Positions 270 through 63,957 of a DNA stretch of 64,000 bases are shown here, piece by piece. The notes below the pieces were generated by a model. That model was not told where the DNA came from, did not search any database, and saw only the letters and a list, made by a program, of their open reading frames with translations. This DNA comes from a virus. How positions within the stretch are numbered: position 1 is the first letter of the stretch; every line of letters begins with the position of its first letter. The stretch is taken from IMG/VR virus record IMGVR_UViG_3300045988_057942; one strand, written 5' to 3'. The position numbers and the translations under genes are program-made.

Positions 270-294
270 CCATCCTCTACGGGGAGTCTACACT
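270..294 (+). repeat. GC-element copy (forward; CCATCCTCTACGGGGAGTCTACAC), intergenic
   Basis: Core consensus CCATCCTCYACGGGGRGT in about 28% GC DNA. Confidence 0.7.
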
Positions 295-5042: not shown

Positions 5043-5080
5043 TATGGTGGTACTGAATAAGTACCACCATTTAAAGTTTA
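5043..5080 (+). terminator. terminator-like hairpin after the tail fibre gene
   Basis: ATGGTGGTACT-GAATA-AGTACCACCAT perfect 11-bp stem followed by TTTAAAGTTT. Confidence 0.45.
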
Positions 5081-5087
5081 TAAAGTT

Positions 5088-5885: not shown

Positions 5886-5888
5886 GTT

Positions 5889-15450: not shown

Positions 15451-15469
15451 GATTGTGTGATGATTATTA

Positions 15470-15553
15470 GCTAGGTTTGACTGACTAATTCAAGCCTGCT
15501 CCATCCTCTACGGGGAGTATAGCTTGCCGAATTTGGCTAGTTTTAAGCCTAGC
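15470..15553 (+). repeat. intergenic GC-element copy flanked by imperfect inverted repeats (MITE-like unit / structured RNA)
   Basis: GCTAGGT...GCCTAGC outer 7-bp stem and CAAGC...GCTTG inner stem enclose the core CTCCATCCTCTACGGGGAGTATAGC (15499-15523). Confidence 0.5.
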
Positions 15554-15658
15554 TGATTAGTTATACACGATTGAATAAAAGTCTTACTGTAAGCCTAAAA
15601 AGTGGCTCTATGGACGTACATAAATATTTACAATATTAAAATTTAAAATAGTAAAGTT

Positions 15659-32852: not shown

Positions 32853-35800
32853 ATGGATGTATTAAAGTTTCTACAAGGTGGTAATCAAACACCTAATCCT
32901 AAATATAATCCTAAAACTAAAAAGGGGGCTATACAGCCTCCTACTTTAGTTGATTACAACCCTGGCACTTCTATTAGTGACCGGGGTCGTGGTCGTTTAT
33001 TTGGTCGTATTGCTGAACAATCATATAATCTTAATCAATATAATATAGATAAATATGCTCCTTATGATGTTTATGTTAATCCTGTTGATGACCATGAAAA
33101 ACTTGATAAAGAACGTGCTGTTAATCAAAGTAATTGGGAACAAGGATTAAGAATGATTGGACAGATTGGTAATGAGATTACTGTTGGTACAGCTATTGGT
33201 TTTGCTGATTTAGCTGATGCTTTCTATAATATGGTTAGTAATAGTCCTAATGATTATCAATCTGAAATAAGTTCTGAACTTGAATCTTTAAAAGAATCTA
33301 TTAATGAACGTTTAGCTATATATAGAGAAAATCCTAATGCTGCTTTTGATATTGGAGATTTTGCTTGGTGGGCTAGCAATGCTCCTAGTATAGCTAGTTC
33401 GTTAACTCTTATGGTTCCTAGTACAGGTCTTGCTAAAGGTGTTTCTTTATTAGGTAAAAGTATAAAGTTTAATAAATTAGCTAATAAAATGGCTAATGCT
33501 ATTAATATGACTCAAAAGAGTAGAGCCATTACTGGTAGAATAGCAGAAGCTACTGCTATTGGAGTTCCTTCTCGTTATCTTGAAAATTATCAAGAAGCTA
33601 GACAAACTTATAATGATATTGAAGATTATTCTAAAACTCAACTTGCTAATATGAATGATAAACAAAGGGAAGAGTTTTATAATAATAATCCTAAATATAG
33701 AGATATGTCTGATGAAGAAGTAGCTAAAGATATTGCTAAAAATAGTGCTGATGTTACTTTTGCTGAAGATTGGGCTAATGTTCTTTTTGATGTATGGCAA
33801 GTTTATAGTTTAAAGAACTTATGGAAAAATGCTTTAAGTGGTAATACAACTAGTTCTAGACTTAGAAATTTAAATACTGCATTTAATAGTAATATTGATG
33901 ATGCCGCTGCAATTACTAATGCTTTAAGTAATAAAACTACTAAACAAGCAATTACTAGTACATTAAAAGATATAGGTGATGATATACTTCATGGAGTAAG
34001 AGCGGAATGGACAGAAGGTGTTGAAGAAGCTATTAACTATATAGCTAGTCAAGATGGTATGTATAATGGTAAAAAAGTATTTGATAAAGATATTCCTCAA
34101 CAAACTATTAAAGATTATCTTCAAGACCCTATGTTATGGGAACAAGCATTTTGGGGTGCTCTTGGTGGTATCACTTTTAGTAGTGTTATGAATAAAGCTG
34201 GAGAATTTATTAATAAACGTCTTGATAAAGATTGGACTTCTGCTGAAAAACAAAGAGAAAATGAAATTCTTGGTCGTACTGCTACTTTTCAAGCATATCA
34301 AGAAAGACTTAATAGTATAGCTAATGGTAAAAATCCATTTATAACTATTACTGATGAAAATGGTCAACAGGTTAATCCAGATATTATTACTGGTACTGAA
34401 GAAGAACTTCGTAATATAGCTGAAAAAGAATATATGGATAATATTATTATTAATTCTATGAACGCTGGTAATTTAGGACTTCTTGAAAGTTCTATTAATA
34501 GTAAAGAATTTAATGATAGTATTACTAATAAACTTGGATTACAACAACAAGATAGTATTGAACTTATTAATAGATTTAAAACTGAAATTAATAATATTAA
34601 AAATGAATATAATACTACTTTAAATAAAGTTAATAGACTTGGTGGTGGATTTGAAGTTGGTCGTATTATAGCTACTCAAATGGTTCATGCTCGTAATCGT
34701 CAAGAAAATTATAATAATCTTCTTAATTGGGCTAATAATGTTTTAAATCAAGATATTACAAATAATCATATTGAAGATGTTGATATTACTTCTGCTAAAA
34801 ATGGTATATATCAACATATTCTTGATAGTATTCAAAGAGATATTAAAACTATTCAAGATAATGCTGCAATTAATGATTCAGTTAAACAAGAACGTATTGC
34901 TCAATTAAATGAACGTCTAGATGCTATTAATAAACTTTATACTCCTATTGATATTGAAAATAAAAATGATATTCAATCAGCTATTCAACTTCAAAAACAA
35001 TATAATGAAGTATTTAAAGATTTAGCAGAAGTTGTTAATGCTGAAATTAATGTTGAAGTTAATAAAAATCAACTTAATTTATCTGATGATAATATTAAAT
35101 CTCGTATAACTTATCTTAATAACTTCTTTGATAATAGTCGTAAAAAGATTGTTAATAAAGCTATGGACGATTTACGTAATGCTTATAAACAATATGGTAA
35201 AGAATATGTTAATTCTGTTATTAAAGATGCTAATAATGGTAATAAACCCAATATAGATAAAGTTATTAGAGATGCTTATGCTGCACTTGATTTAAGTTCT
35301 AAAGGTAATGAACATCTTAAAAATACAATAGAACAATTAGCTGAAATTGCAAAGATTGAAAATGATGTTAATAATACTCCTAAAGAGGAAGAAGTTGCTC
35401 CTGTTAATCCTGATGTTAATGAAGTTAATGAAACTGATGTAGATGATACTAACTCATCTCCATCCTCCACGGGGAGTATAGCGGAGCGAAGCGAAGCGGT
35501 TCTTAGTGAGCCTACTAATACTGAACAACTTCAATCTCAAACTGAACAACCAATTTCTCAAGAACCTATTAGTACTCCTAAGCCTGAAGTTAATAATACT
35601 CTTCCAGATGATGATTTTGAACGTGGTCAAATAGGTACTGATTTAGTTTATGAAAGTATTGCTGATTTAGAAGATTCTTTAGGACATGAATCTACTAGTA
35701 GTGATTTACTTAATGCTAGACAATCTTTTATTGATAAACTTAGTCAAGCTGGATTTGAACAAACAGAAGCTGCTGATATAGTTAATAATATTATTGATGG

Positions 35801-38856: not shown

Positions 38857-41800
38857 ATGAGTTGTGGAAATATTAAACTTGTAGGATATAATAATCTTAA
38901 TAATGTTATTATTAAAGAACATGGTTCTAATAATGCAGATTATTATAGTCTTATAGCTATGGTTGAAGACCCAATCTTTAAGAAGATTGTAGCTGATAAA
39001 GGTATTAATGTTAAAACTTCTGGAAGACAAGCTTATAATGCTCTTCTTGAAGCTAGAGCTATTAAACTCCGTAATATGGATGATATAGCTTCTGTTGCTG
39101 AAAAAGAAGAACGTGGTTTGTTTAGTACAATTAAAGCTAGAGATACAGCTATTACTTATATGGCTGATATTATGAATAAACTTAGTTTTAATTTTCTATA
39201 TAATGGTGCTCCATTAAATTTTAATGAAATTAAAAAACGTACTAATGAAACTGTTATTAATGCTGGACTTAAACGTGCTAAGAAATTAGCTGGAAGTGAT
39301 GAAACTAGAAATAATGAACTTAATAGTTTTATTAATAATCCAAATCCTGCTATTAAAATTAACGGTCTTGGTGCATTTCTTCGTAAATACGGTAATGCTC
39401 AAGATTTTAATTATGGGGCATTACTGCGTTCTCTAACTAATACTGAATTTAATGAAGCTCTTTTTAATAATAAGAATGTTGCTAAACTTATTAAAAGAGA
39501 TGAATTATATCAAACTACTGATTATGAAGAATTAGGCGGATATCTTGATGAAACTTTTACTGAAGGTGATGAAAATAGTATAGATGATGGTATTGATTTA
39601 ATGACTCAACTTTGGAATTTAAGTATTGGTGAAGTTAAAGATTTTAATAAACACGTAGAAGAAATTATTAAATATCATCTTGCAAGTTTACCTAAACTTA
39701 CTGCTGCTTCTCAACTTGATAATGGAAGTTATCCTTTTGATACTAATAATGAATTAGGAGTTGTTACTTTTTCTGATGCTAATTATTTATCTAAAATATT
39801 ATATGCTAGTGCTGATACTAGTAATGTAGATAATTTTATAGCTAGTCTTAAACGTATATCTGAAACTATTCCAAATTGTGAATGTTTAATTCAATTACAT
39901 GATTTACTTAGCAAAAATAAAGTATTTGCTAATAAGTATATGATGGTATTTAATAAACCTATTATATCTAAAATTGAAACTTATATTCAAACTGATTCTA
40001 ATGGTAATAGTTATGTTCGTGCTCGTGTAACTAATCCTAATACTGATTCTCGTACTATTTTACAGAATACTTTTTATAATAATGTTAAAAATAATATTAT
40101 TACTAATCGTGTTCCTAGTGCTCGTGAAAAGTTTCGTATATATGATAGATATAAAAATACTCCTCATGCTAATCTTTATTTATATGATGCTTTTAAAGAA
40201 ATATTTCCAGATATTAATCAAGCTAGTTTTAATTTAGCTATTGCTAAAATTGGACGTATTGCTATGGCTAATAATCTTATTAACTTTGCTAATGTTATTA
40301 ATCGTACAGTTGAAAATTATAATAAATATGTAGAAGCACTTAAAAAGGATAAAAGAACTAAAATGCCTGATAGTTTTATTAATAGAGGTGATACTTCTAT
40401 TATATATCAAATGGCTGATGTTTTTAAAGATATTATTTATATTCCTGTTGAACTTAATTCTCGTAATCCTGAAGGTAATTTAAGTTCTGATGTTATTAAT
40501 AGAAGTTTTATTACTAATATTGCTAAAATTATTAATGATGATAAATCTACTGTTGAAGAGCAAAATGCTATGGTTGAAGCTTATGCTAAACAAAAGTTTG
40601 CTAGTCATCAATATGATTATAGTAATTTACTTCTTGAACATAGAGATAGTAATGGTAATATAATTAATTATGGATTATTTAGAAGAGTTGGAAATGGAAC
40701 TCCTAAACTTACCGAATATGCTCGTAGTATGTTTAAAACTTCTCTTCTTAATGGTATTAGCGAATTAGATAATAACAATAATGACTTATATCGTAGTATG
40801 AGTGATGGTGATTATTTAATTACTGCTATGGGATTATTTATGACTGATATTAATAATTCTGAAACTCCTACTGCTAATTATTTACTTCCCATACCTAGTG
40901 ATGCTCCTAAAAACTTTACTATTACTGCTCCTAGATATAGTCTTGCTGGATTACGTAGTCAACTAGAAGATGGAACTAAAATTATAAATAGAGAACATCC
41001 ATTATTTAAACAGTATTATAATATAGTTATTCAAGAACTTACTAATATGGCTCAAGCTGTTAATGTAATGTTTAAAACTAATGCTAATGGTAATCCTATT
41101 TTAACTAATGGAGATTTTGAATTTAGTGATACTTATAATAATAAACCTGAACATTTTTATAATCAATACCATAAAGATGGAAAAGATAATGTATTTACTA
41201 CTAAAGATGGACATAAAGTTTTAGCTGGTAGAGTATTTAGTTTTAAACGTTTAGCTAGTAAAATTACTCCTAATAGTAATGGAGCATTTAATGAACTAAT
41301 TGGGTATGGTAAGACTATTGACATCCTCTACGGGGGGTCTACACGTGGACTTAGCTATGTTAATAATCAAGTAGTTCTTAATGCAGAACAACGTATTGCT
41401 CTTGAAGATGCTGTTGCTGATTGGTTAAATGAATATATAACTAATGGTTATAAAGAACTTAAAAATAAATATGGTACATTTATTGATGATAGGATTAATA
41501 ATGAATCTTTAGCTGAGTTTCTTGTTAATGACTATCTTGTTAGAGATAGTATGTACGATATGTATGGCGGCGACCAAAGTTTTTATAAAAATGGTCAAGC
41601 TATTCTAAAACGTATTAAAGAAGTACAAGCTAGTGGTAATCCTTTTGGTAATACAGACTTTACTAAAAATGATTTAGATATAGCTACTAATTTATATGAT
41701 GTAACAATTAATGGTAATGCTATTACTGTCCCTTATACAGTTAATGGAGTTGTTAAACGTAAAAAAGTAGTTCTACAAGATAAATTTAGAGGTGTTACTA

Positions 41801-44800
41801 TTTATAATACTTTTAAATCTTCTGATAAAGTTGTTATTGATAGACTTGATGACCAACTTAAAAAAGCTGGACTTGATAAAAAAGACAGAGAACGAATATT
41901 AGAACCATTTAAAGGAGGAGTTAATGCTAATGATGCTCAATCTTATATTACTCTTGAAGAATGGATTCGTCGTATTACTGCTGCTGGTGAATTAGATAAA
42001 TATGCTGGACTTATTCAAAGTCTTACAGATGACACTCCTATTGATAAAATTGATTGGAATAAATTTGCTAATAAAGTTCAAATTCAAAAGAATTTCTATT
42101 ATGATTTATATTATGATACTACTGTTGGTATTGAAGTTCCTAGACAAGTAAAGAATGCTGAGTTTGTTCTTATTCCTAAACTTATTAAAGGAACAGAACT
42201 TGAAAAAGTTTATAATATAATGACTAATAGAGGTATTCATCAGCTTAATACTGTTGAAACTGTTAAAGTTGCACAACATAACAGAATGACACTTTGGAAT
42301 AACGATGGGGTTCTAACTGATAAAGCTCTTAAAGAATTTGATGATAATGTATTTGATAATTCTGAATTGTTTAGTTATAATTATCTTTATCGTCAACAAG
42401 AAGTTCCTCAGCATATGGTTGATGCTAGTAATAAAGCTGCTATTCAGATTATGAAAAAAATGCTTGATAATCTTCCTAATAAACCTGAACTTAATGACCT
42501 TAAAAATAAAGTATTTAATAATTATGTAGCTAATATTAGAAATAGTTTTGAAAAAACTTGTGCTGAACTTGGTATTGGATTAGATGATAATGGTCATATT
42601 GATTTAAATTCTAATGGTACTATTAAAAATCTTAATCGTTTTGTATTTTTTGATAGATTTAAAGAAAATGCTCAACAACAAGGAGTTGAGAAAGCTTTTC
42701 TTGAATTTTTTGATTTAGATAGTGCTGGATTTAATAATCTTCCTTTATTCTTATCTAATATTAATAGTAAACTAGAAAGTATTGCTAATAGTTATTTTAA
42801 TACTAATATTACTAGACAACTTATTAGTGGTTGGCACGCTGCTCAGTTATCTGATTTTGGATTTAAAGTTGATAAACAAACTCAAACAGATAGTAAACTT
42901 CAATATAAGAAAATTGGAGAAGTTGATGGCACTCCTGTTTATTATACTGAAATTAAACTTCCTAGATGGAGTAGTAAACTTAAAGGATTAAATATTGAAC
43001 AAGTTCCTGATAGCTTACGTACTATGATTGGTTATCGTATTCCTACTGAAGGTAAGCAATCTATATGTATTATGTATGTTAAAGAGTTTCTTCCTGATGC
43101 TTATGGTAGTACTGTTGTTGTTCCTGATGAATGGGTTACTCAAACTGGTTCTGACTTTGACGTTGATAGTGTTTATGGTATGTCTAAAACATTTAATCTT
43201 GTTAAAGGTGTTCCAACTGAAATTACTCATGCTAGATATACTAAAGATGAAGTAGGATATATTAATTATGTTAAAGATAATGTAGATAAAGCTAGTCGTA
43301 AGATTCTTGGTAAGACTTATAATAAACAAGGTAATATTAGAGCTTCTTTAAAAAATAGTGAAGATGCTATTAATGCTACTCTTGAAGGTTATAATGGCAA
43401 TCTTAAAGTTGTTGAAAAAATTGCTAATGATGGTGGACTTAAGTCTTACGAATCATACTTGAAACTCCCCGTGGAGGATACAAGTAGTCAAGCTGCTAGA
43501 ACTAATGCTATTATTCAATCATTTATTGATATACTTAATAATCCTGCTGCATTTGAAGAAAATACTACTACTTCTAATTTTGAAAATGTCAAAGAAGCTA
43601 ATGAAACTTATGCAGAAATAGTTGGCGCTAATAAAACAACTGTTGCTCCTAGTGATTTCTTTACTCAACTTGATTGGTTTGATGCTGCTACTTCTGGTAT
43701 TAAACTTAAAGGTATCAGTGTTAATAGAGATACTTTTATGAGTATTGGAAATGTTACTAAAGCTAATCATAGCGAAGGTATTAAAGTTATGTACACTACT
43801 GATGTGATTAGTGAGCAAGAAGCTGTTAATAGATATGGTAAAGAAAATGTTGAAACTATTGGTAATAAACATATTCGTATTACTCATAAGAATTTTGGTT
43901 GGTCTGGAGATGATAAGAATGTTGATGGTTATTTGATTAATCCTTATAGTTCTCAGACTACTGCTCATATTCTTGATGTTATGAAAGAGGGAGCTATACA
44001 TAATGAAAATACTTATACATTTAATGCTTTCAAAACTATTGTTGACTTTGGAAGTAATTATGATACTGCTATTGGATTTATGTGGCAACCTGCTATTGAT
44101 ATATTAGTTCGTAAATGGAAAGAAACTAATAGTGTTCTTGCAGAAGGTACTAAAAATCCGCTTACTGAAGCTATTAGAGAAGTTGCTCATAATCTTGGTT
44201 TTGGTGAAAAAGTTAATTTTGCTGGACGTAAAAAGCTAATTGATATTATTAATGAAAGTTATGGTGAAACTTTCAAGAAATTATTCAATTTAAGCGTTTC
44301 TGAGGCATTTTCATCACCCAACCTTATATTTTCATCAGACGCATATAAATCTCGTCTTAGAGGGGAAATGAATGGGGTTCAGCAGGCTTTATTTGACCTT
44401 TATGTTCTAGCACAATTCAATCGGTTAAACTCAATCGGACAGGATATAAGTAATAATCTTAATATTCTTAGTGCTGATAAATATGGTGCTAAACAAAGTT
44501 TTTATGCTAGTGATAAAGTATTTAGAGATGCTAGAACTGTTATTGAAAATAGTAATATTTATGCTCCATCCTCTACGGGGGGTCAAACCTTGTTGTTAGA
44601 GAGTGTATTTCCTGATATTAGTGGTGGTATAGATGCGTTTATTAAATCAGATATATCTAAAAGTAGTTATCCTAGTTTAGCTGCATTTTTACAAATGAGT
44701 ACTGCTCTTAGTGTTAAAGCTACTCAACAAGTATTTGAAACTGCTAATCCTGTATTTATTGATTATGTATATAGAATAGCGGAATGGACTAAAGGTGGAA

Positions 44801-47800
44801 TAATGACTGAAAAGTTATATAATGACTATAAAGATTATCTTATTAATAAACTAGAAGTAGGTAATAATGGTAGTTCTTATCTTAATTTACCTGTTACTGT
44901 TGTTAATGGAGATTTTGTTCATCCTAAATATATTAAAGAATATGGTACTGGACAATCTAGAGCTTTAGAAGTTGGTAGAGTTAGTGGTACATTAGTTAAT
45001 ATTAAAACTGATGATGTTGTAGTTAAAAATATATTTGAACCTACACAAACTGAAATTGATGTATTTGCTAGACTTACACCTGCTCAAAAAGTTGATTGGA
45101 TTAAACGTAATTTTAGTCAAGACGGTAGTATATTTGCACATATTGAAATAGTTGCTAATGATGAAAGAAATAATCGTCGTAATGTAAATATTCAATATAT
45201 TAATTATATACAAGGTGATATTACTAATGATGAAGCCCATAGATTGTTTGATAGAGCTTGGAATCATCCTAATCCTCTTATTAAACTTGCAGCTCTTGAT
45301 TTAGTTAAATATGCTTTTATTGTTGAAGGTCATAAATTTAGAACTAGAAATATTAGTAGACTTATAAGTAATACTCCCCTTAGAGGATTGAGCGATAATG
45401 GAATAGCTATTGGAGATATAGCTATGAAAGGCATTAATAACTATGGTTTTATTGATAAAGATAATGTTGAAGATATAATTGGTTTTATTCGTAAAAATTA
45501 TAATAGTTTTAATTGTCCTAGTTATACATTTAAAAGACTTACTAATAATAAAATTAATTATAGTCTAAAAAGAAGTGGTATTATTACTTTTAATGGTCAA
45601 GAAAATCTTGATAATGTAGGAATAATAAGAAATGGAGATGCTGTTAATGTTATTAGAATTAATAAAAATTTATATATTAAAGGAACTTATGATGGAACTT
45701 TAGCTTATTATCCTATTGATAGACTTGAATCATTTGAAACTTATAATAGTATTGAGCCTAGTATTATAGCTAATAATAATATTCATAAACCGTTAGCTGT
45801 TCTTCTTTATGAAGGTCTTACTCAACAAGAAAAACGAGATAAATTTATTGATGGTATTAAAGACAATATTAATGAAGCTATAAATAAAGGTTATAAAGAA
45901 GTTCCTGAACTATATGGTAAATATATATCTGATGAGTATTTCCAACCTTTTATGAATACTCCTTTTGAGAATAATACTATATATACTATTAATGATAAAT
46001 TTTATCTTAACATTAATGGAACTACTGCTATTAATTTAAGCGATGATTTACAGCAATATAAAGCTAAATATCCTAATATTGAAGATAGTAAACTTGGATT
46101 ATTTATTGAAATTAATGAAAATGAAATAGATAGAGTTACAAGTAATACTGATAGATATAGTAGTGTTGATGACCAAACTCCTATTGGTAGATTTGCTAAA
46201 AATGCAAGTTTAATTATTTCAAGAGCTGTTCGTCATGGTCAACCTGCTGCTCAAAATGTATTAAACGCTCTTAATAATGCTGAAATTAATTATCTTGATA
46301 GTAGTAGTCTTTCTGATAATTCTGAATTTTCATTATCAGTTATAGCTAATTATATAGATGTTGAAGCTAATAATATTCTTAATGATATTAATCGTTTTAT
46401 TAAAATTGATGGTATCGATAAACCTATTAACGATAAAGATGTTATTGGTAAAGTTCTTAAAGATGAACAACTTCAAAATCGTTTCTTAGATGTTATTCTT
46501 AGTGCTAATACATTTAAGAATAAATACAAACTTATTAGCGAAATTGATATTGATAGTACAAATCTTGATGATAAAACTAAAGAGAATATTAGAAAGATTC
46601 AGAAACTAGTTAATCAAGTTGATTCTAATACTACTGTACATTCTGCTAGAAAAGATTGGTTTGAAAGATGGATTCAATTACGCACTACTAATCCTAATTA
46701 TATAAGTGGTCTTATGAAAGAATTTGATGCTTATGGTGATACTGGATTTATGGATTATTGGATACAAGATATTCGTGCTAATCGTAACTTTGTATTGCAG
46801 AATATACTTAAAGATGTAATGGGTACTGTTGAAGAAGGTCGTCTTAACGGTATTAAAGAAGCTAATGACTTTAGAAATTATCTTAAAGAACTTAAATCTA
46901 GAGCTACTAAAGATGGTAAATCTGTTAGTCTTGATAGTATAATTGATGATGATGGTAGATTAATTCAACCTAATAATCCTATTTGGGAAGAAAAGATAAA
47001 GAAATATAGAGATGCTGCTATTGAAGCTGAACAAAAATTTGGTATAAATAGTGTTGAACATCTTATTGCTTTATCTAATAAAGCTAAATTTATTGATATG
47101 ACTACTATTCATCAGCTTAAACCAATCACTGTTCAAGATGAAGATGGCAATGATGTTACTATTGAATATTCTACTTATATTATAAATCTTGAAAGAAGTT
47201 TATTAGGTCTTAAAAAAGGAGATGATGGTATTCCTAAAGAATTTGCTGAATATAAAAGACTTAATGGTAGAATACGAGATATTCTAAGCCAAGCTACTGA
47301 TAATGTTACTACACAAAGTCAAGATGAAGAACTTGGACGTATCTATGCTCAAATGGATAGCCTTACTAGTCTTTATGATGAAGATGGTAATAAAAAGATT
47401 GGTCATGATTTAAATGTAGCTGAAAGACTTCGTGCTTATCAAACTAATATTCGTAAAGTAAAAGAAATGTTCTATGATAAGCAAGCTAAAGAAGGATTTG
47501 ATTCTAAACTTAAAGAACAACTTTCTATTATTAGTAAATATGAAAGTCAACGTGATGCTAATGGTAATCTTCTTATTAGTATGGAAGAACTTATGAAAGT
47601 TCCTGAATATCGTGAAGCTAAAGAATGGATTCGTAAGAATACTAGATATATTCTTGATATTAAAGATATAGAAGATTTAAATTGGGCATTTGAAGAACTT
47701 AAAGACGCTAATAAAGGTAATAGTGTTCTTAATCTTGCTATTAGAGAATTTCAAGCTAAAGATGAATTTAACGTAGTTGATGGACGTAAAATACCGGAAG

Positions 47801-50800
47801 AACGTGCCGCTCTCATAAAAGCTGAAACAGTTAGAAAATATAAATATACTAAAGGTAATGGTATACCTTATGTTGGTATTATTCGTTCTGCTGAAGATGA
47901 ATTAAGAATTTATCGTGCTGATTTCTATAATTATCTTACAGGTAATAAATCTAAGAGCGAAGAAGAAATTAATGTAGGAGAAGCTATTAATAAAATACTT
48001 GAAAAATATTTTGATAATGCTACTAGAACTCTTAATACTGCTGATATTAGTCAAGAAGATTTAGAACAACTCAAGACTGGTTTTGAAGTATTTAATGAAA
48101 TTACTAGAGGAGAAAAGAGTGTTGATAAAGCTAAAGCAAAACGTGTTGCTGAATTTATTGAAAGTGAATGTGATGTTACTTATAATTGGAAGCAATATGA
48201 ACTTGATAAAAATAGAGCTTTTGCTAAAGGTAAAAAGTATTATGATAAATGGCTAGAAGTATTTAGTGAACAAGTTGAAGAAAATGGAACTATTGCAGAA
48301 AGACCTAATCGAACTATTTATGGTATTATTAAACCTAAAGATTTAGATAAATGGACTGATATTGATAAAACTGCTGCAATTAATATTCTTCAAAAAAGAA
48401 CTAGAGAAACTACTACTCAATATTATTATATAAAAGAAAAAGAAGTTCTTGATAAATATGGTATTGATAGTCCAGAATATAAACAATGGTATAGAGATAA
48501 TCATTATTTTGACCCATATACTCGTACTATTAAACCTATTCGTATTTGGACTACTATGCAAATGATTAAAGATGATGGTTCAGCTGTTGTTGGTAATTAT
48601 GAACCACGTATTAATCAAATGCATATTACTCCTAAAGAAGAACTTATTAATCCAGAATATAGTAGTTTTGTTAATAAGTATAAAGTAGGAACAGGATATG
48701 ATAATCCTAATTATACTAATCTTAATGAGTATCAACTTGAACTTATGAATAAAGTAAATGAACTTATGAAAAAGTATTGTTTTACTAATAGTAATAAGCG
48801 ATATGTTGATATGGGTTATCTTCCAGCTTTGCCTAAATCTAAAGATATGACTGTTAAAGATTATTTTGAACAAGCTCTTAGTTTTCTTGGTTGGACAGCC
48901 AATGTTCCTAATAATACTAGTTGGAGAAATAATGAAGATTTAACTTTTGATAAAGATTATGATATTCCTAATCCTAGATTAGTTCAGTTAGTTAATAAAG
49001 ATACTCAACAGTTGCCTACTATACCTAAATTTAAAGAGCCTAATGAAAGTGATGAAGAATTTAGTAAACGTAAAGCTGCTGCAATTAAAGCTAGAGATGA
49101 AATTATTGAAAAGAATAATAAAATTCATAATGATATTCTTAATCGTAATTGGGAAGAAGTATTTAATAGTTTCTTAATTGAAAGTAATAGATATAATGCT
49201 ATTAAAACAGTTAAAAATCTTCTTTATACTGCTGACCAAATTATTACTAGTAATACTGCTTACGATATAAATTATAAAGGTAGTATAAGTGAAAATAGAG
49301 AAGCTAGTGCTGGTGGTGAAATTGAATATAAACAAGAAAAACAAACTAGAACTAGTGAACATCTTAGAAGTTTTATTCGTCGTCTTGTATTTGAACAATA
49401 TAAAGATAATAAAATTCCTAATCTAGTTAAACTTGGTTCTCTTGCTCAAAACATTGCTGGTAGTAAATATATGATGATGAACATTACTGGTGGTATTGCT
49501 AACGTTCTTACTGGTTCTAGTAATATATTTATGGAACGAGCTGCTGGTGAATATATTAATCTTAAAGATTGGGAAGCTGGTAAATCTGAATGGATTAAAG
49601 GAACTGTTAGTTATATGGCTAATATGTATAGTGAAAATAGTAGTACTCTTCAAGATGCGATTATTAAACTTAGTCATGTAGTTGATTTTGATAGAGTAAC
49701 TGAAGTTAGTACTGCTGAAGGTCTTAAAGAAAATATTCGTAGAGTTCGTGGATTACTATTTAGTCCTCAATCTGTTGGTGAACATTATATGCAAAATGTT
49801 ATGCTATTTGCTATGCTTAAATCTCATAGACTTGTTGATAATGGTAGAGGTGGTTATGATATAATGAGTAAAGAAATGTATCATCGTAAAGCTGAACAAG
49901 ATGCTCTTATGTCTGTAATAAATACTCCCCGTGGAGGAGAGAACCAAGCTCTACTTGAACAATTCAATAAGTTCATGGATGAAGCTAAAGCTGATAATAA
50001 AAAACGAGCTAAATATAATCTATTTAAAGCTAATCCTATATTTGATTTTGTTAAGACTTATCTTAATGAAGAACAACAAAGAGAATATATAGCTAAACGT
50101 AAAGAACTTATTAAGAATATTGATAAAGAGTTTGCTAAACTTCCAGATATTTATAATCAGTTTGAACTTAAAGATGGAATTGCTCAAATAAAATCTGATA
50201 GTAAACTTACTCTTAAAGAATATGCTAAATTTATTGATAAAGTTCGTGAAGTAAATAAGAAAGTTCATGGTGTTTATGATAAACTTGGTTCTGCTAATAT
50301 AGAACAACATTGGTGGGGTGGTACGGTTATGCAATATCATAAACATCTTTATCCTGGTTTTAAGAAACGTTATCGTTGGAACGGTTATTATAATGAAACT
50401 CTAGGTACTATTGAAAAAGGTAGTTATACTAGTCTTTATGATTATTTGACTATTCCATTTAAAGAAACTAACGTAGGAGAAATTAATAATGTAAGTGATG
50501 TTCTTAAAGCATTCCAAACTTATGGTAAGAATTTACTTTCATTTGCTGTTAATTTCAAACTTAATTATGAACTTCTTCCTGAACATGAAAAAGCAAATAT
50601 TAGACGTAATTTAGGTGATTTACTTTATGTAGGTGCTGCTATTATTGGAGCAATTGCTATAACTGGTATTGGAGGTGATGACGATGAAAGTATTATGTAT
50701 AATCTTATGCTTTATCATGCTGACCGTCTTGCTTCTGAAGCTGCATCATTTACTCCATTTGGAGCTTATGCTGAAGGTAAAAAGCTATGGTCTAGTCCTG

Positions 50801-51153: not shown

Positions 51154-51708
51154 TCAATCATCAAGAATAATACGTTTTTTATCATCAAGAAAACCAACCA
51201 TACCATCATATTTATCATGATAAATCTTAATAAAATCAGTCATACTACCTCTAAATATATAATTATGATTAACAACATAAGTAGATTTTTTAGTAGTATT
51301 AATAATTACTTGTTCGTTATAAAGTTCATTTAAAGCAATATAAAAAGTTTTTGAATCAATATGAGCATAATTCGTTATATCACTTTCAGTAAAAGTAATT
51401 TTATTACTACACCATTTAATATTATTACAAATATAACTAATAATAGCAATACTACCTTTATTAAGTTTAATAAGTTTAGAACTTAATTCATTACCAAATG
51501 TAACATATTCACGATTAGTAATAGTTTTCTTTGTAAGTTTAAAAACAGTATTAAGTGTTGCTAGACTATCAGTAATTTCTCTATCCTCTGTTGTAACTTC
51601 AATATTATACACAGTAGGAGCAATATTTTTAGCAACTTCATTAGCTCTTTTAGAATATATATCTCTAACCTTTTTAAGAGCTTTACTATCAAATGTAACT
51701 CTAGTCAT
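51154..51708 (-). CDS. winged-helix DNA-binding protein, RepL-like (replication initiator or regulator)
   Basis: 184 aa. HTH followed by the wing STYVVNHNYIFRGS, which resembles the (Y.NP..iFkGs) motif of RepL-like wHTH proteins. Inference. Confidence 0.35.
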   Translation of the reverse strand: MTRVTFDSKALKKVRDIYSKRANEVAKNIAPTVYNIEVTTEDREITDSLATLNTVFKLTKKTITNREYVTFGNELSSKLIKLNKGSIAIISYICNNIKWCSNKITFTESDITNYAHIDSKTFYIALNELYNEQVIINTTKKSTYVVNHNYIFRGSMTDFIKIYHDKYDGMVGFLDDKKRIILDD

Positions 51709-51917: not shown

Positions 51918-52100
51918 TTAATTAAAACCATCATCATTATTACCAATAACACACATAAGAATAACAAAAACTATAATACCAATAACAAATAGTTTTCCAC
52001 TATACTTATCCATAGCTTCACTATCACTAATATTATTAGCAACTGCCAATAGTTTAACACCACCAAATATAATTCCAAGAAGAACAATAAATGCAACCAT
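51918..52100 (-). CDS. small membrane protein
   Basis: 60 aa, hydrophobic. Confidence 0.35.
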   Translation of the reverse strand: MVAFIVLLGIIFGGVKLLAVANNISDSEAMDKYSGKLFVIGIIVFVILMCVIGNNDDGFN

Positions 52101-52138
52101 AATTATAATATATTTAAGTTTAACAATAAGATAAAAAT

Positions 52139-52178
52139 AAACCTCAGTAGTAAGACTAGCTTATCTACCGAGGTTTCA
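52139..52178 (-). terminator. rho-independent terminator-like hairpin (minus strand)
   Basis: AAACCTCGGTAG...CTACTGAGGTTT followed by ATTTTTAT on the - strand. Confidence 0.45.
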
Positions 52179-52213
52179 GTCATGCCAACGACTATAAGTT
52201 TAAGGATTAGTAG

Positions 52214-52261
52214 AACGCTCCGCTTCGCTACGCTCAACTCCCCGTGGAGGATGGAATAGAC
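52214..52261 (-). repeat. GC-element copy (reverse) with GCGAAGC-containing extension, intergenic
   Basis: GAACGCTCCGCTTCGCTACGCTCAACTCCCCGTGGAGGATGGAATAGAC. Confidence 0.7.
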
Positions 52262-52328
52262 TAGTATTCATTCAATCAATATAATCATTATTATTAATAA
52301 CTATACTAATATTACTAGCATAACTACT

Positions 52329-52383
52329 ATTCCATCCTCTACGGGGAGTATAGCGAAGAGTGCGTAGCACTCGTAGCGGTTCC
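52329..52383 (+). repeat. GC-element copy (forward) with GAGTGCGTAGCACTC hairpin extension, intergenic. Inverted partner of 52214.
   Basis: ATTCCATCCTCTACGGGGAGTATAGCGAAGAGTGCGTAGCACTCGTAGCGGTTCC. Confidence 0.7.
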
Positions 52384-52466
52384 AAGCTAATCATTAAATT
52401 TAATAAAGCCAGCTCTATTAGAGCCAGCTTTACGTATAACATATAAACCATTAGCATTAATACTAT

Positions 52467-54518: not shown

Positions 54519-54832
54519 AGATAAACTTCATTACCTTCAACTTTAGCATCACTAAAATGACTTTTAAAACTTTCAACACTTCTACACCATAAAGGTTCAA
54601 GTCCATTAAGTTTATAAATAACAGCAGGAATCCATTCACCTGTATCTGGATGTTTCATTTTAGTAATACTAATAATTATATATTCATTAGACGTTTTATT
54701 ATGAATATAACGAGCACCAACTTTAAGCTTTAGCTGCGCCGCCTGTTCCTTTTCCAAATCCTTTGTTTCCACGTTCAGTTTCACCAAGTTCTTCAATAGA
54801 ATTAACTTCTTTCCAAGTAATACGTTGAGCAC
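54515..54832 (-). CDS. DUF1653-like protein
   Basis: YIHNKTSNEYII...KHPDTGEWIPAVIYKLNG..LWCRSVESF matches the DUF1653 pattern. The 5' end overlaps the dUTPase gene, so the true start is uncertain. Confidence 0.35.
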   Translation of the reverse strand: MLNVLLGKKLILLKNLVKLNVETKDLEKEQAAQLKLKVGARYIHNKTSNEYIIISITKMKHPDTGEWIPAVIYKLNGLEPLWCRSVESFKSHFSDAKVEGNEVYL

Positions 54833-55391
54833 TATTAATAATTAATTGTGCACATCTATCTTCTCCATTACAATCATAAGGAGGAATAGAAACTTTAGCA
54901 AGAATATTAGTCATTGTAGTTCTAACACTATTAAGTTTAAGTCTAGAATTACCTACCATACTATCAGGTAAATGCATATGTTGTCTAAGTTTATCAACTA
55001 CTTCAACAAGGTCAGATACAGCATGAATTAAATCTCTAGAAGTACGATTCTTAAAAATAATAAGAAGTTCTCCACGATAACCCCAATCAAGAGTACCAGG
55101 TGTATTTGGCATATAAAAATCAGATTTAGTAAGATTACTTCTAGGACGGAGAGCCATTTCGTTAGGATTACCATCATCATCATTACCAATAGCAAATGCT
55201 AAACCAGTATGATATATAAATCTATCTTTAGTATTATCATATTCACAGTGTATAGGATAAATATCCATACAAGCATCACCTTCTTTACCATAAACAGGTA
55301 AAATAGGTTGAACATTACAATACTGTTCTACATCTACAACATCTCCACTAAGAAGTTGAATTTCTTTTAGCTTAAATACTTTTATTTCCAT
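54723..55391 (-). CDS. dut: dUTPase
   Basis: All five trimeric dUTPase motifs: GDACMDI, RPRSNL, GTLDWGYRGEL, RCAQLII, RGNKGFGKGTGG. Confidence 0.75.
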   Translation of the reverse strand: MEIKVFKLKEIQLLSGDVVDVEQYCNVQPILPVYGKEGDACMDIYPIHCEYDNTKDRFIYHTGLAFAIGNDDDGNPNEMALRPRSNLTKSDFYMPNTPGTLDWGYRGELLIIFKNRTSRDLIHAVSDLVEVVDKLRQHMHLPDSMVGNSRLKLNSVRTTMTNILAKVSIPPYDCNGEDRCAQLIINSAQRITWKEVNSIEELGETERGNKGFGKGTGGAAKA

Positions 55392-56617: not shown

Positions 56618-56664
56618 ACTCCCCGTAGAGGATGGAATGCACATCATCCTCCACGGGGAGTATA
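56618..56664. repeat. two GC-element copies in head-to-head arrangement forming a ~45-bp near-perfect palindrome, intergenic
   Basis: ACTCCCCGTAGAGGATGG-aatgcacat-CATCCTCCACGGGGAGT. Confidence 0.7.
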
Positions 56665-56670
56665 ATTTAG

Positions 56671-57453
56671 CTATTTAATAATAAGACTAGTATTTTCGAC
56701 AAACTTAGCAATACTAATATCTCTACCATTGTTAAGAATATTTTTCATAGTAGTTTTATTAACAGAACTACTTCTAGTCATTTCATGTTGATGATTAAAG
56801 AAAGTATTAATCAAATCAAAATTAGCTTTATTAGCTAAATCACCGATAGGTTTTTCAATTTCAAATTTAACTTTAATACAATCTAAATCATCAAGAGTAA
56901 AATAACCTCCAGTTTCTTCTTTAAGTTTAGCAGATTGCTCAGGATAATTTATAGCAAATTTAGCATTAATATTATCAAGCATAATTTCTCTATTAAACGA
57001 TTCAACATCATCATTAATTAAATCATTATCCCAAAGAGTTTTAAAATGGTCTAATACTAAATCTATAAATATTTGATTAAGACTTTCATCTACTTCAACA
57101 CATTTACTATTTCTAGTATAAAGTTTACTATCAATCAAATCAATAGACCTATTACCAGATTCACCTAAATTGCCATAAGTAATAACAGCATCAAGCATAA
57201 CACTTTTAAGTCTATTAGCATGATTCTCTTTAGTTTTACGAAGAACAGCTAATCGTTGCTCTTCTTTTTTACAAGATTCAGCTTCAAGATTAAGTACAGT
57301 ATATGCTTTACGATAACTATCAAGTTTGGATTTAAGACTTTCTTGTGTAATAGCGAGGCGTTCTTCAAGTTCAGGAGTTAATTCACCTCCATTTTCTTCT
57401 AACTCAAGAAATATATCCTCAAGTTCAGCAGTAATATTATAAATATTTGCCAT
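56671..57453 (-). CDS. Gp157-like (Sipho_Gp157 family) protein
   Basis: N-terminal MANIYNITAELEDIFLELEE..ELTPELEERL...NLEAE..KEEQRLAVLRKTKENHANRLKS matches the Gp157 N-terminal pattern. Confidence 0.35.
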   Translation of the reverse strand: MANIYNITAELEDIFLELEENGGELTPELEERLAITQESLKSKLDSYRKAYTVLNLEAESCKKEEQRLAVLRKTKENHANRLKSVMLDAVITYGNLGESGNRSIDLIDSKLYTRNSKCVEVDESLNQIFIDLVLDHFKTLWDNDLINDDVESFNREIMLDNINAKFAINYPEQSAKLKEETGGYFTLDDLDCIKVKFEIEKPIGDLANKANFDLINTFFNHQHEMTRSSSVNKTTMKNILNNGRDISIAKFVENTSLIIK

Positions 57454-60628: not shown

Positions 60629-61835
60629 TTATAACAACAGTTTTAATATGAAATGGAACTCTAGAAACACCACTCCGTTCACCATATTCTATATGAACAG
60701 TTCTACCAATATAAGATTGAGAATCAAATAAAACTTCTTGCTGAACAATATGACTAGTGCTTAAACGAGTTTCAAACTTTTCATTATTAATATCATTTTT
60801 ACAAAGAAGAATAGGTAAATCACGTTTCTTTTCTTTATAAATATCAAGAATGATAAAATCTCCCTCAGCAGAATCTTTAAACTTCTCCATATAATTAGCT
60901 CTACGTCTACCATATTGATAATCAGTTTCAGCATTACGAAGTATAAGACCTTCAAATCCTAAATTAATAAAATGATTTCTAGCGTCAATAGCTTCATTAT
61001 CATTAGTAATATATCCACTAGGAAGAATAATCAATCGTTCTTTATTATTATAATGTTCTTTAATATTATTAAAGCAAGTAGGAAGCTTAATATGATAACG
61101 ATATGTATTTCTATGAGCTTGATTACCTTCCATCATAATATCATAACACCAAAACTGAAGAAGTTTATTTTCAACACAATTAGCATCTTTAACAAAATGA
61201 TTAATTTGATTAACAGTATAACCGGGAAGATAAACTTCACCATCAAGTGCTGCAAATCCATTAATCATATCGTCGATAATATTTGTATTAATAGTAGCAA
61301 GCAGATAATCTTCAAGATAGCCAAGAGTATGCCAAGTAAGACCTTCACGACTTTGGAAACGAAGCCTAACAGGTTTAAACATATCATTTTGAGTATAAGC
61401 AGTAACAATACAACGCAGACCATTAATCTTATACTGACCATACATACAACTGACTTTTTTCCAAACATTACCATTATACGTTTTAGCAAGCATTGGAAGT
61501 AAAAGATTACTGTTTCCATTACTAAGGTCTTTAGGTAGATAAGTATTTAGAAAATTAAATAGAGTATCATTATCTCCATCCTCCACGGGGGGTAAACCCT
61601 GCATATCACAAAGTTCATTAAGATATGTATATCCTTGTTTAATCTTATCATTATATCTACTTTCAAGTTCTTTTTGACCATCTTTTTGAGTAACAGCATA
61701 AACTTCTTTACGAATATTACCTCGAACAAGACCATAAAAAACAGTGATACTATTAGTACCACTGTCAAGTTCAGCCCACCAAACAGTAGGCACACCATTA
61801 TTATTTCTACGATAAAGTTTATTCATTATGTTCAC
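60609..61835 (-). CDS. ATP-dependent DNA ligase-like nucleotidyltransferase (motif I variant KINGLR)
   Basis: Motif I KINGLR (KxDGxR with D replaced by N), motif III AALDGEVYL, IV FWCYDIM, V EGLILRN, then KFK. Confidence 0.5.
   Translation of the reverse strand: MNIMNKLYRRNNNGVPTVWWAELDSGTNSITVFYGLVRGNIRKEVYAVTQKDGQKELESRYNDKIKQGYTYLNELCDMQGLPPVEDGDNDTLFNFLNTYLPKDLSNGNSNLLLPMLAKTYNGNVWKKVSCMYGQYKINGLRCIVTAYTQNDMFKPVRLRFQSREGLTWHTLGYLEDYLLATINTNIIDDMINGFAALDGEVYLPGYTVNQINHFVKDANCVENKLLQFWCYDIMMEGNQAHRNTYRYHIKLPTCFNNIKEHYNNKERLIILPSGYITNDNEAIDARNHFINLGFEGLILRNAETDYQYGRRRANYMEKFKDSAEGDFIILDIYKEKKRDLPILLCKNDINNEKFETRLSTSHIVQQEVLFDSQSYIGRTVHIEYGERSGVSRVPFHIKTVVINGDTRL
61574..61599 (+). repeat. 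GC-element copy inside the ligase gene (read from the - strand as GLPPVEDGD)
   Basis: CTCCATCCTCCACGGGGGGTAAACCC. Confidence 0.7.
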
Positions 61836-62804: not shown

Positions 62805-63957
62805 AATTATCTTCTATATATTTAACAACTTGTTGAGTTAATTCATTAATAACATTTGTAGAATAACTACTTCTCAATTCGGCAAAATCTTTAACACCAA
62901 GTTCTTTAGGAATAATAATAGGTATAATATCATAATCATTCTTAAGAATTATAGCTTCCATAAGACCAGTTCTATCATTATCCATAAGGCTAATAAGAAA
63001 ACCATTCCGATTAAGTTTACTACGAAGCCAATCATATTCAATTTGACGAAGTTTATAAGTTTCATGTGGAATATTCACAACACCAATAGCCTTAGACTCA
63101 AGGGTAGACCCCCCGTAGAGGATGGAATGATTAATACTTTTTAGATAACATTCAAGACTTAATCTATCTTTAGTAGATTTAGTTATAATAATAACGTCAT
63201 AATTATCTAATTCAAGATTAATAACTCCTTCAATAGTATTACTATTAGTTATAAACTTAACTTCAGTTTTCTTATTCCTATTTGGAAAATACAGTTTAAC
63301 ATTAACTATTCCTCTTTTATCTTGCCCAAGAACGTAACCATAACATAAATCTGTTTTATTTTTATCATAAAAATATTTAGGAATAGGATTAGTTGAACGA
63401 TTAATATAAAATTGGTCAACAGGATAAACAAAATGAGTATTAAGAAAATTAAGATTAACACCAAATTGTCCCCAATACTTAGCATCTAAATTATTCCACG
63501 GACGAGTAACAAGTTCAATAATAGGTTTATGATTACGTACATTACTAATAGCCCTAGCAATATTATAATCGTTGTTTTCATCTTTATCTTGTCCATAAAT
63601 AATATTTCTAAAAGTATAAGCAATATGTTTAAGAACAAATAGAAATTGACTTTTAATAGAAATATCAATTTGCTTATGAACAATTTCAGAGAGTACAGTT
63701 GCAGCAGCATCTATACAATCTCCCCACCAATATCCAGCAAAATCTCTTCCTTTAAGTTTATTCCTATTATCATATCTAAAACCAAAACTAGGATGAGTAT
63801 CTTCACGAAAAGGACTAGATATAAATTCTCCTGTATCTATACAATGTTGTATATCTTCAACACTAATTCCAGTATAAGTGCTAAAAATAGTAATTTGACT
63901 AACTTTAGAGAAAATATAATCTTTAGTTAAAATAGTATTACTAATATTTCTTTTCAT
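62746..63957 (-). CDS. DnaG-like primase (TOPRIM) with degenerate zinc-binding domain
   Basis: SPFREDTHPSFGF is like the DnaG zinc-binding-domain motif CPFH.E.TPSF but has Ser in place of Cys. TOPRIM-like VIIITKSTKD and LMDNDRTG. Confidence 0.4.
   Translation of the reverse strand: MKRNISNTILTKDYIFSKVSQITIFSTYTGISVEDIQHCIDTGEFISSPFREDTHPSFGFRYDNRNKLKGRDFAGYWWGDCIDAAATVLSEIVHKQIDISIKSQFLFVLKHIAYTFRNIIYGQDKDENNDYNIARAISNVRNHKPIIELVTRPWNNLDAKYWGQFGVNLNFLNTHFVYPVDQFYINRSTNPIPKYFYDKNKTDLCYGYVLGQDKRGIVNVKLYFPNRNKKTEVKFITNSNTIEGVINLELDNYDVIIITKSTKDRLSLECYLKSINHSILYGGSTLESKAIGVVNIPHETYKLRQIEYDWLRSKLNRNGFLISLMDNDRTGLMEAIILKNDYDIIPIIIPKELGVKDFAELRSSYSTNVINELTQQVVKYIEDNYGEETEFTWDTEESNTLPY
63107..63129 (-). 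repeat. GC-element copy inside the primase gene (read as HSILYGGSTLE)
   Basis: GACCCCCCGTAGAGGATGGAATG. Confidence 0.7.

Follow-up and report, generated by a model that had tools for sequence, protein, structure and literature searches.

An evenly spaced, strand-asymmetric DNA signal in Carjivirus communis and related phages, with inverted pairs as candidate initiation sites

Introduction

What are the opposed copies of a GC-rich element that face each other across an AT-rich spacer at positions 52214-52383 of a viral DNA stretch of 64,000 nucleotides (IMG/VR record IMGVR_UViG_3300045988_057942; the whole stretch is called the window here)? An earlier note on this DNA grouped the locus with a palindrome near 56.6 kb and a unit flanked by inverted repeats near 15.5 kb, and proposed that all three might be cruciform-forming sites, bidirectional terminators, origins, or intact MITEs (miniature inverted-repeat transposable elements). 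Megablast identifies the window as a strain of Carjivirus communis, the prototypical crAssphage, with 93-95% identity to BK010471, MW067003 and others; its total divergence from BK010471, the reference used below, is 6.8%, and its GC content ranges from 27 to 34%. C. communis is the most abundant human gut phage, and its origins, the promoters of its virion RNA polymerase (RNAP) and its mode of persistence are unsettled. A signal of ~12 nt, present at ~30 evenly spaced sites across genera and through coding sequence, would provide a concrete handle on a core process, together with exact probe sequences.

The motif string was not found in the literature searched, which also contained nothing on crAss repeats or dispersed motifs. 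One study treats the RepL genes, origins and GC skew of C. communis (PMC10983915), and the parts of its text reached by a term search contain nothing on these repeats. A family-wide, evenly spaced, frame-independent DNA signal appears to be undescribed so far.

Results

A short DNA signal under purifying selection

The element common to both arms of the 52.2-kb locus has the core CCCCGTRGAGGA, extended in C. communis to the fuller form GGTWKA-CYCCCCGTRGAGGATGGA. Scanning the window for the pattern CTCCCCGTRGAGGATGG with up to three mismatches (the consensus has Y at position 2) gave 22 matches against 0.03 expected, which excludes chance. The exact 12-mer CCCCGTRGAGGA is present 31 times in the 97-kb reference genome and is absent from shuffled versions of it. 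Sixteen of the 22 copies in the window lie inside open reading frames (ORFs), in five combinations of frame and orientation, where they encode the peptides LPVED/PPVEDG, TPRGG, PSSTGG, ILYGG or HPLRG.

The IMG/VR loci considered below were retrieved by the motif itself, so conservation within the species was measured only on the unbiased comparison of the window with BK010471. Over positions 3-14 of the core, minus the R position, 0 of 242 sites are mismatched, while the flanks differ at 7.4-7.8%. The core is under purifying selection that acts on the DNA and not on the encoded protein. A peptide motif was ruled out as the conserved entity by the five different frames and by frame switches between orthologues (described below). 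For annotation this carries a warning, as it is a DNA signal that gives rise, as a by-product, to the short conserved peptides PSSTGG, PPVEDG, ILYGG and TPRGG of unrelated crAss proteins.

A host origin of the element was likewise ruled out. An 18-mer scan of 185,579 species genomes (one per bacterial or archaeal species) recovered only mis-binned crAss contigs and isolated single matches, the latter taken as chance occurrences in unrelated genomes. The former include near-complete crAssphage contigs of 89-98 kb inside metagenome-assembled genomes or assemblies labelled Clostridia, Mycoplasma, 'bacterium' and Chitinophaga silvisoli, reflecting mis-binning or contamination. In some strain comparisons, identity appeared to give way to divergence at the motif. 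When this was tested systematically, left/right divergence asymmetry showed no excess (0.041 at motif sites and 0.042 in the background), and the motif was rejected as a recombination breakpoint or hotspot.

Lineage-specific words at orthologous, evenly spaced sites

Related genomes carry the signal in their own wording. The four Intestiviridae genomes compared have 28-32 copies each, against 0-1 in shuffles:

C. communis: consensus GGTWKA-CYCCCCGTRGAGGATGGA, 32 copies
Delmidovirus cr11_1: consensus GAGA-CCCCCCGTAGAGGAW, 30 copies
Rudgehvirus jaberico: consensus TGTAAnnTCCCCTGTARAGGAG, 28 copies
crAss002 (another subfamily): consensus TTCCCCCRTARAGGAG, 28 copies

Eight of the 16 intragenic C. 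communis sites that can be mapped by protein alignment are orthologous in cr11_1, within flanking proteins that are 35-60% identical. At some of these the reading frame has switched: the primase site reads ILYGG in the window and PLRG in cr11_1, and a gp50 site reads TPRGG and PVED, respectively. Small insertions and deletions surround both frame-switched sites (63109-63125 in the primase gene, 22229-22245 in gp50), such that the DNA word is kept and the local protein is re-framed. The primase site is retained in crAss002 with that phage's own consensus, and Rudgehvirus has a copy within its primase gene, at a codon position that is unmapped. Orthologous sites that change in concert in each lineage point to a co-evolving, trans-acting reader and argue against independent transposon relics; this implies that the reader would be encoded by the phage. 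The lineage-specific words could also serve as taxonomic markers.

In all four genomes the clusters of sites are spaced far more evenly than expected at random, with a mean gap of 3.7-4.3 kb and a coefficient of variation (CV) of 0.46-0.59 (P <= 0.003). A comparable pattern was noted outside the family. The crAss001 genome (NC_049977.1, Steigviridae) is without the Intestiviridae motif and contains 27 copies of a candidate 9-mer, CTCCAGAAG (~0.4 expected), on both strands (e.g. 1580, 6485, 8022 ... 99095), with a mean spacing of 3.8 kb and a gap CV of 0.70 (P = 0.04). Dispersed words of this kind may be general in Crassvirales.

Anatomy of the 52.2-kb composite

Plus-strand genes of the window run up to 51069, the last being an ORF of 4070 amino acids (the RNAP gene), and minus-strand genes run from 51154 on. 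In the reference annotation the composite falls between gp41 (N4 gp49-like) and gp42; the gene after gp42 is gp43, which encodes a RepL-type initiator. The features of this region are:

51154-51708, minus strand: RepL-type replication initiator, KP06_gp43 orthologue, next-but-one gene downstream of the composite
51918-52100, minus strand: gp42 orthologue, 60 amino acids, first gene downstream of the composite
52139-52176, minus strand: intrinsic-terminator-like hairpin (12-nt arms, 14-nt loop, then a T-run on the minus strand), between the composite and the gp42 start
52195-52402, no strand: full imperfect palindrome of ~208 bp, including a weaker outer 16-nt inverted repeat (52195-52210 / 52387-52402)
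52214-52237, minus strand: left-arm GC extension, reading GAGCGTAGCGAAGCGGAGCGTTC on the minus strand, with three overlapping GCGNAGC mini-hairpin heptamers
52238-52259, plus strand: left core CTCCCCGTGGAGGATGG plus AATAG, inner part of the inverted repeat
52260-52326, no strand: AT-rich spacer, 67 nt, 17.9% GC, single copy in the genome
52327-52348, minus strand: right core (CTCCCCGTAGAGGATGG on the minus strand) plus CTATT
52349-52383, plus strand: right-arm extension TATAGCGAAG-AGTGC-GTA-GCACT-CGTAGCGGTTC, with hairpin arms 52353-52363 / 52367-52377 and a GTA triloop

The opposed cores are CTCCCCGTGGAGGATGG (52238-52254, plus strand) and CTCCCCGTAGAGGATGG (52332-52348, minus strand), and the best inverted repeat of the composite joins 52228-52259 to 52327-52358, with 32-nt arms that are 88% complementary and 67 nt between them. 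The earlier description of two opposed copies around a 67-nt AT-rich spacer, each extended by a GC hairpin, therefore holds for the copies, the spacer and the right-hand hairpin. In the right extension (52353-52377) a genuine, imperfect 11-bp stem closes a GTA loop (z = -2.5, -6.7 kcal/mol). By itself the left extension (52214-52237), a run of three overlapping mini-hairpin heptamers, has no significant fold (z = +0.7). As single-stranded DNA the whole composite folds at -38 kcal/mol (z = -8.0 against shuffles).

Absence of the locus from close relatives, which the earlier note had named among the grounds for dismissing it, was not seen: the composite is present in 15 of 15 instances from independent assemblies, amounting to 14 distinct sequences with the window counted. 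Across these 14 variants the left core is identical apart from the R position. The spacer, whose GC content lies within the lowest 5% of 67-nt windows, varies more among strains than the arms do. One strain (IMG/VR 3300003506_000001) carries, at the place of window positions 52349-52383, the extension allele AGCGTAG-GCAC-GTA-GTGC-CGAAGCG that is otherwise located at BK010471 93665, which suggests occasional sequence exchange between copies of the element.

Such an allele would also fit a selfish miniature mobile element (MITE, REPIN or GC-cluster-like), of which the 170-bp composite would be an intact non-autonomous transposon and the solo cores remnants. The repeat is GC-rich in a 29%-GC genome and has inverted-repeat architecture, its core includes the GT[AG]G tetranucleotide as in repetitive extragenic palindromes (REPs), and at a few sites the motif codons are missing from homologues (7 codons at 49925, for example). 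We nevertheless consider this explanation very improbable. The whole unit is single-copy, its 67-nt spacer matching at full length once in the window and once in the reference (the other matches being short, AT-rich and due to chance); the sequences outside the arms, TTAAGGATTAG and CTAATCATTAA, are inverted and not direct repeats, and hence provide no target-site duplication; and no empty site was found among the 14 strain variants. Moreover, other genera have pairs at the syntenic location, orthologous copies span genera and subfamilies, conservation of the core far exceeds that of neutral flanks, the even spacing is unexpected for insertions, and the motif is absent from bacterial genomes apart from the mis-binned crAss contigs. 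No transposase or REP-associated tyrosine transposase (RAYT) is named in the phage gene tables examined, although no dedicated profile search of all ORFs for RAYT was made. The proposal of an intact MITE with ~50-bp terminal inverted repeats is accordingly rejected, on the lack of a target-site duplication and of an empty site, the single copy, the orthologous positions, the even spacing and the purifying selection on a core that is mostly intragenic. It follows that the composites are functional dyads of a cis signal spread across the genome, and do not form a fixed element of 170 bp.

A mini-hairpin module extends some copies

On their G-rich strand some copies continue into a module of the form AGCGNAG-[stem-GAA/GTA/GAAA-stem]-CGNAGCG. 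Read from the flanks, it accompanies 7 of the 33 reference copies found at <=3 mismatches, and 4-5 of the 22 in the window. The left extension of the 52.2-kb composite is its minimal form, AGCGNAG-[C-GAA-G]-CGNAGCG. The central stem takes five forms at paralogous copies, depending on the locus (none, AGC/GCT, GAC/GTC, GCAC/GTGC, AGTGC/GCACT), and at the 52.3-kb arm compensatory substitutions in other strains give AGTAC-GAA-GTACT or GCAC-GTA-GTGC. The window has nine GCGNAGC heptamers, seven of which fall in extensions, and crAss002 copies have similar, GCTCCGC-type extensions. Loops of this 'mini-hairpin DNA' class also mark the G4 primase origin, RSF1010 ssiA and the N4 virion-RNAP promoters (PMC13037366, PMC4496689), and GNA triloops are a stability motif of DNA rather than RNA (PMC13037366).

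The extensions contain the Firmicute-type Chi words AGCGG and GAAGCGG, and an asymmetric motif that covers the genome evenly on both strands might be a Chi-like or other polar sequence that modulates a nuclease or translocase, and thereby protects or orients the genome; inverted pairs would then act both ways. Known Chi sites measure 5-8 nt, much shorter than the 12-17 nt of this motif. Neither Chi word is enriched genome-wide, the motif is not in host genomes, the phage encodes a Gam-like nuclease inhibitor, and the copies show no polarity relative to the genome arms, which leaves this reading with little credence. As a separate observation, AGCGG is found once in the 100 kb of crAss001, where ~58 are expected from base composition; the four Intestiviridae genomes show no such avoidance.

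The 56.6-kb palindrome and the 15.5-kb site

The two companion arrangements comprise the following features:

56618-56661, no strand: head-to-head core pair, cores at 56619-56635 (plus) and 56644-56660 (minus)
15466-15557, no strand: solo core at 15501-15517 (minus) and a small plus-strand hairpin, GCC-GAATTT-GGC, within outer arms

The palindrome built from two head-to-head cores was borne out. Its arms (56618-56634 / 56645-56661) are 17 nt long, 94% complementary and separated by a 10-nt loop, with a fold z of about -6.5 to -7. It lies between gp31 (Gam-like, 56671-57453) and gp32/gp33 (DUF932). The near-perfect form is confined to the window lineage, the right copy being less perfect in most other strains.

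At 15.5 kb a core does sit inside a unit flanked by inverted repeats, as had been described, and this is the weakest of the three arrangements. The outer arms (15466-15478 / 15545-15557) are 13 nt long and 85% complementary, and the unit folds weakly (z = -2.8 on the plus strand and -0.9 on the minus strand). In divergent strains the changes in these arms are not compensatory, and the arms are not maintained there. All three sites had been placed between genes of the early region or between operons. The early region is incorrect for the 15.5-kb site, which belongs to the structural (late) block, between the orthologues of gp57 and gp56 (zincin protease). The orthologous position in Delmidovirus cr11_1, adjoining the zincin protease gene, has a head-to-head pair (37848/37886) in place of the solo copy. 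From computed folds, each of the three sites is predicted to be able to form hairpins or cruciforms, in agreement with the earlier proposal.

Inverted pairs recur at the borders of gene blocks

Copies that lie within 500 bp of each other are inverted in 21 cases and direct in 2 (P = 7e-5). Over the four genomes, intergenic pairs are convergent 9:1, with their GGATGG ends facing and one copy on each strand, and genic pairs are divergent 8:3 (Fisher P = 0.0075). The spacer length in composites is free, from 14 to ~120 bp. Three of the four genomes have a pair in the divergent strand-switch region (C. communis 95743/95861, cr11_1 11909/12037, Rudgehvirus 85901/86014). Close to the convergent switch, 0.4-1.3 kb into the replication-gene block, a pair is present in all four; three are convergent and that of Rudgehvirus is divergent. 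The replication-block pairs are:

C. communis: 28075/28169 (the 52.2-kb composite)
cr11_1: 77220/77251
crAss002: 64741/64775
Rudgehvirus: 55426/55522

Positions near both strand switches, at operon boundaries, are where bidirectional terminators or RNA hairpins that stabilise 3' ends would be expected (a role like that of REPs or bacterial interspersed mosaic elements, BIMEs), the intragenic copies having another function or none. With convergent intergenic pairs either transcript ends with a G-rich copy and then the hairpin module, intergenic solo copies have their G-rich strand on the sense strand 8:3, and the sense (minus-strand) RNA of 52120-52392 folds at -110 kcal/mol (z = -10). The strand bias is not significant (P = 0.23), however, and neither arm of the composite leads into a U-tract or T-run. 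A T-run does accompany a separate, canonical hairpin at 52139-52176, which lies downstream of the composite by ~40 nt and closely upstream of where gp42 starts; this suggests that gp42-RepL is its own transcription unit (the gp42 product is hydrophobic, as judged by eye from the translation and not with a prediction tool). In addition, GNA triloops stabilise DNA rather than RNA. A terminator scan flagged only TCCTCCACGGGGA, with a weak tail, at 56647-56659; counts from the sigma-70 promoter and terminator scan equalled those of shuffles and are uninformative; and Rfam 15 searched against the whole window gave nothing at the gathering threshold, with sub-threshold generic hairpin matches at the composite. 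Against this reading, ~70% of copies are intragenic, in both orientations and equally conserved, where termination would be harmful. The earlier suggestion of bidirectional terminators might therefore hold for the intergenic pairs and fails for the intragenic majority, and as an account of the pairs and long-form copies we regard it as unlikely.

The same distribution could reflect double-stranded DNA sites bound by an architectural, partition or regulatory protein that the phage encodes, with the head-to-head pairs as high-affinity dimer sites. The solo copies show no orientation bias relative to genes (42:31), the spacing is even genome-wide, the consensus shifts in concert in each lineage at orthologous sites, as happens when a DNA-binding protein co-evolves with its sites, and C. 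communis has been reported to be a phage-plasmid (PMC10983915). The unit is, however, asymmetric and mostly solo, unlike the palindromic sites of ParB, SopB or Noc; the spacings of pairs, from 14 to ~450 bp, are incompatible with one fixed dimer geometry; and a hairpin module with compensatory changes points to a single-stranded form. No ParA or ParB is named in the gene tables of five phage records, none was found among eight window proteins scanned, and the same architecture is present in crAss002 and Rudgehvirus, which are not described as plasmids. With these points in mind, a protein that binds the duplex seems to us an improbable reader.

Further copies in the window

The remaining copies discussed here are solo cores, intragenic pairs and long-form copies:

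270-286, minus strand: intergenic solo core, located 35 nt upstream of a gene that starts at 321
6492-6508, minus strand: solo core in the BACON-domain gene (5889-9773)
10450-10729, no strand: intragenic convergent pair in the tail gene 9859-11544, copies at 10450-10466 (plus) and 10713-10729 (minus)
22015-22245, no strand: intragenic divergent pair in the gp50 orthologue, copies at 22015-22031 (minus) and 22229-22245 (plus), both kept in cr11_1
29001-29462, no strand: intragenic divergent pair in the gene 28044-30290, copies at 29001-29017 (minus) and 29446-29462 (plus)
35460-35502, minus strand: intragenic long-form copy in the gp45 orthologue, core 35460-35476, extension 35477-35502 with three GCGNAGC heptamers
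37737-37753, plus strand: solo intragenic core in the gp45 orthologue
41321-41337, minus strand: solo intragenic core in the RNAP gene (4070 amino acids), with a crAss002 motif at the same codon position
43465-43481, plus strand: solo intragenic core in the RNAP gene, with an orthologous copy in cr11_1
44566-44582, minus strand: solo intragenic core in the RNAP gene
45374-45390, plus strand: degenerate intragenic copy, CTCCCCTTAGAGGATTG, in the RNAP gene
49925-49941, plus strand: intragenic copy in the RNAP gene, its 7 motif-bearing codons missing from the cr11_1 homologue
61576-61592, minus strand: intragenic core in the DNA ligase gene, with an orthologous copy in cr11_1
63109-63125, plus strand: intragenic core within the primase gene; cr11_1 and crAss002 have orthologous copies, each in the consensus of that phage and in part in a different frame

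The copy at 22015-22031 carries an extension (22032-22061) with a GGAC-GAAA-GTCC hairpin. Elsewhere in the window, the dUTPase gene (54723-55391) is a single ORF of 669 nt, while the reference gene spans 1685 nt at 5077-6761, with a group I intron that encodes an HNH endonuclease; the window strain appears to be without this intron.

Discussion

We tentatively favour the possibility that the signal is the start site, on unwound DNA, for an RNA-synthesising enzyme, either the DnaG-type primase of the phage or its virion RNAP, while placing it at somewhat less than an even chance. The signal would be read once the DNA has become single-stranded: its G-rich strand would fold into small hairpins that stay free of single-stranded-DNA-binding protein, and the enzyme would start RNA synthesis there. 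Solo copies would then be dispersed priming or loading sites, and a head-to-head pair would provide one start for each strand. The virion RNAP of the crAss-like phage phi14:2 transcribes single-stranded DNA well and double-stranded DNA barely (bioRxiv 10.1101/2020.03.07.982082), a property that would suit such a reader.

For the 52.2-kb composite an origin is the reading that we favour. Opposed, hairpin-bearing signals would clamp an easily melted spacer of 18% GC, ~0.5 kb upstream of gp42-RepL, and under supercoiling the composite might extrude as a cruciform, analogous to ssiA/ssiB in RSF1010 oriV. In its anatomy, the locus has two features of an origin made of opposed single-strand initiation (ssi) signals, namely a G-rich core with a mini-hairpin module on each strand and an AT-rich spacer. 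The only other similarly built pair of the reference, BK010471 95743/95861, consists of convergent cores ~100 bp apart with a GC extension on one arm, and lies ~260 bp upstream of the second RepL. It is to this second RepL region that OriFinder and Nanopore coverage assigned a predicted origin of C. communis (PMC10983915).

Homology between the spacers of the two RepL-associated composites was considered and rejected, their short matches not exceeding what AT-rich DNA elsewhere gives by chance; the TTGATT-like repeats of the spacers likewise do not stand out from the AT-rich background, and RepL itself lies ~0.5 kb downstream of the composite. Beside the divergent-region pair, two direct repeats of ~27 bp, TTTATACCATACATGGAATAGATTTCG, were noted at BK010471 ~96010-96090, between the pair and the start codon of RepL gp88, and these may be iterons or operators.

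Several observations weigh against initiation and against an origin at 52.2 kb. The published origin predictions for C. communis are at the other RepL and not at this composite (PMC10983915), and no early-promoter motif was found for the phi14:2 virion RNAP (bioRxiv 10.1101/2020.03.07.982082). A pure lagging-strand priming signal served by a single origin should show a strand bias, and the orientation of solo copies relative to gene direction, and hence to the presumed direction of the fork, shows none (the 42:31 given above). At 4-5 bp with G-T wobbles, the hairpin of the core is short, and a minority of copies has the stronger module. Dependence on RepL was tried and rejected, as crAss002 and Rudgehvirus have pairs without a RepL homologue, and pair spacers, at 14 to ~120 bp, are not always AT-rich. 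Finally, the contrast between convergent intergenic and divergent genic pairs is unaccounted for by any explanation considered.

A broader hypothesis, which we find rather doubtful, is that the words form a hitherto unrecognised code of genome architecture in crAss-like phages. Each family would have its own evenly spaced, strand-asymmetric and frame-independent signal (CCCC(N)GTARAGGA in Intestiviridae, and perhaps the candidate 9-mer of crAss001), co-evolving with and read by a phage-encoded enzyme that initiates on single-stranded DNA, such as a primase or a QDE-1-like virion RNAP, and the composites would be replication origins or early start sites.

Comparison with known systems places these alternatives in context. 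Among repeats that spread as selfish elements, Rickettsia palindromic elements and the GC clusters of yeast mitochondria are, like the copies described here, short GC-rich repeats in an AT-rich genome that can lie in frame inside genes. They are selfish insertions, however, with presence/absence polymorphism and no selection on their sequence, whereas the crAss core is strongly selected, evenly spaced and orthologous. REPs, BIMEs and REPINs share the small size, the GC richness, the single or inverted-doublet arrangement with a variable spacer, the hairpins, the GT[AG]G tetranucleotide and the intergenic positions at operon ends. In contrast to the crAss unit, which is non-palindromic, intragenic in 16 of 22 copies and orthologous across genera, REPs lie outside genes, are each an imperfect palindrome, owe their mobility to RAYT and do not keep their positions between genera.

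Intragenic parS and dispersed centromere sites resemble the signal as DNA-level conserved sites within the coding sequence of a plasmid-capable replicon, and together with the SopB sites of N15 the intragenic parS sites are the nearest precedents for partition. They are palindromic sites that number 4-10 and bind dimers of ParB or SopB, while the crAss sites are asymmetric, number ~30 genome-wide and have no evident Par proteins.

The closest parallels are found among signals that are read on unwound DNA. In RSF1010, ssiA and ssiB lie on opposite strands as the arms of a palindrome by an AT-rich segment, and the primase reads them directly, without a helicase loader. These and G4-type signals are, as here, short, structured and strand-specific, with a GNA/GNNA mini-hairpin. 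They differ in that they occur once or twice per replicon, at the origin, compared with ~30 evenly spread copies of which 70% are in genes; the conserved core is unrelated in sequence, and the crAss copies, for which priming is only a proposal, are without orientation bias. The N4 virion-RNAP promoters contain a GC-rich heptamer mini-hairpin (GCGGAGC in N4; GCGGAGC, GCGAAGC and GCGTAGC here), which supercoiling extrudes from the DNA and which an RNAP delivered with the virion reads as a single strand. N4 has three promoters, all in the early region and in one orientation, whereas here the module is borne by a minority of copies; and the N4 enzyme is T7-like, with no relation to the two-barrel RNAP of crAss phages. 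Nevertheless, crAss-like phages also deliver an RNAP that prefers single-stranded DNA.

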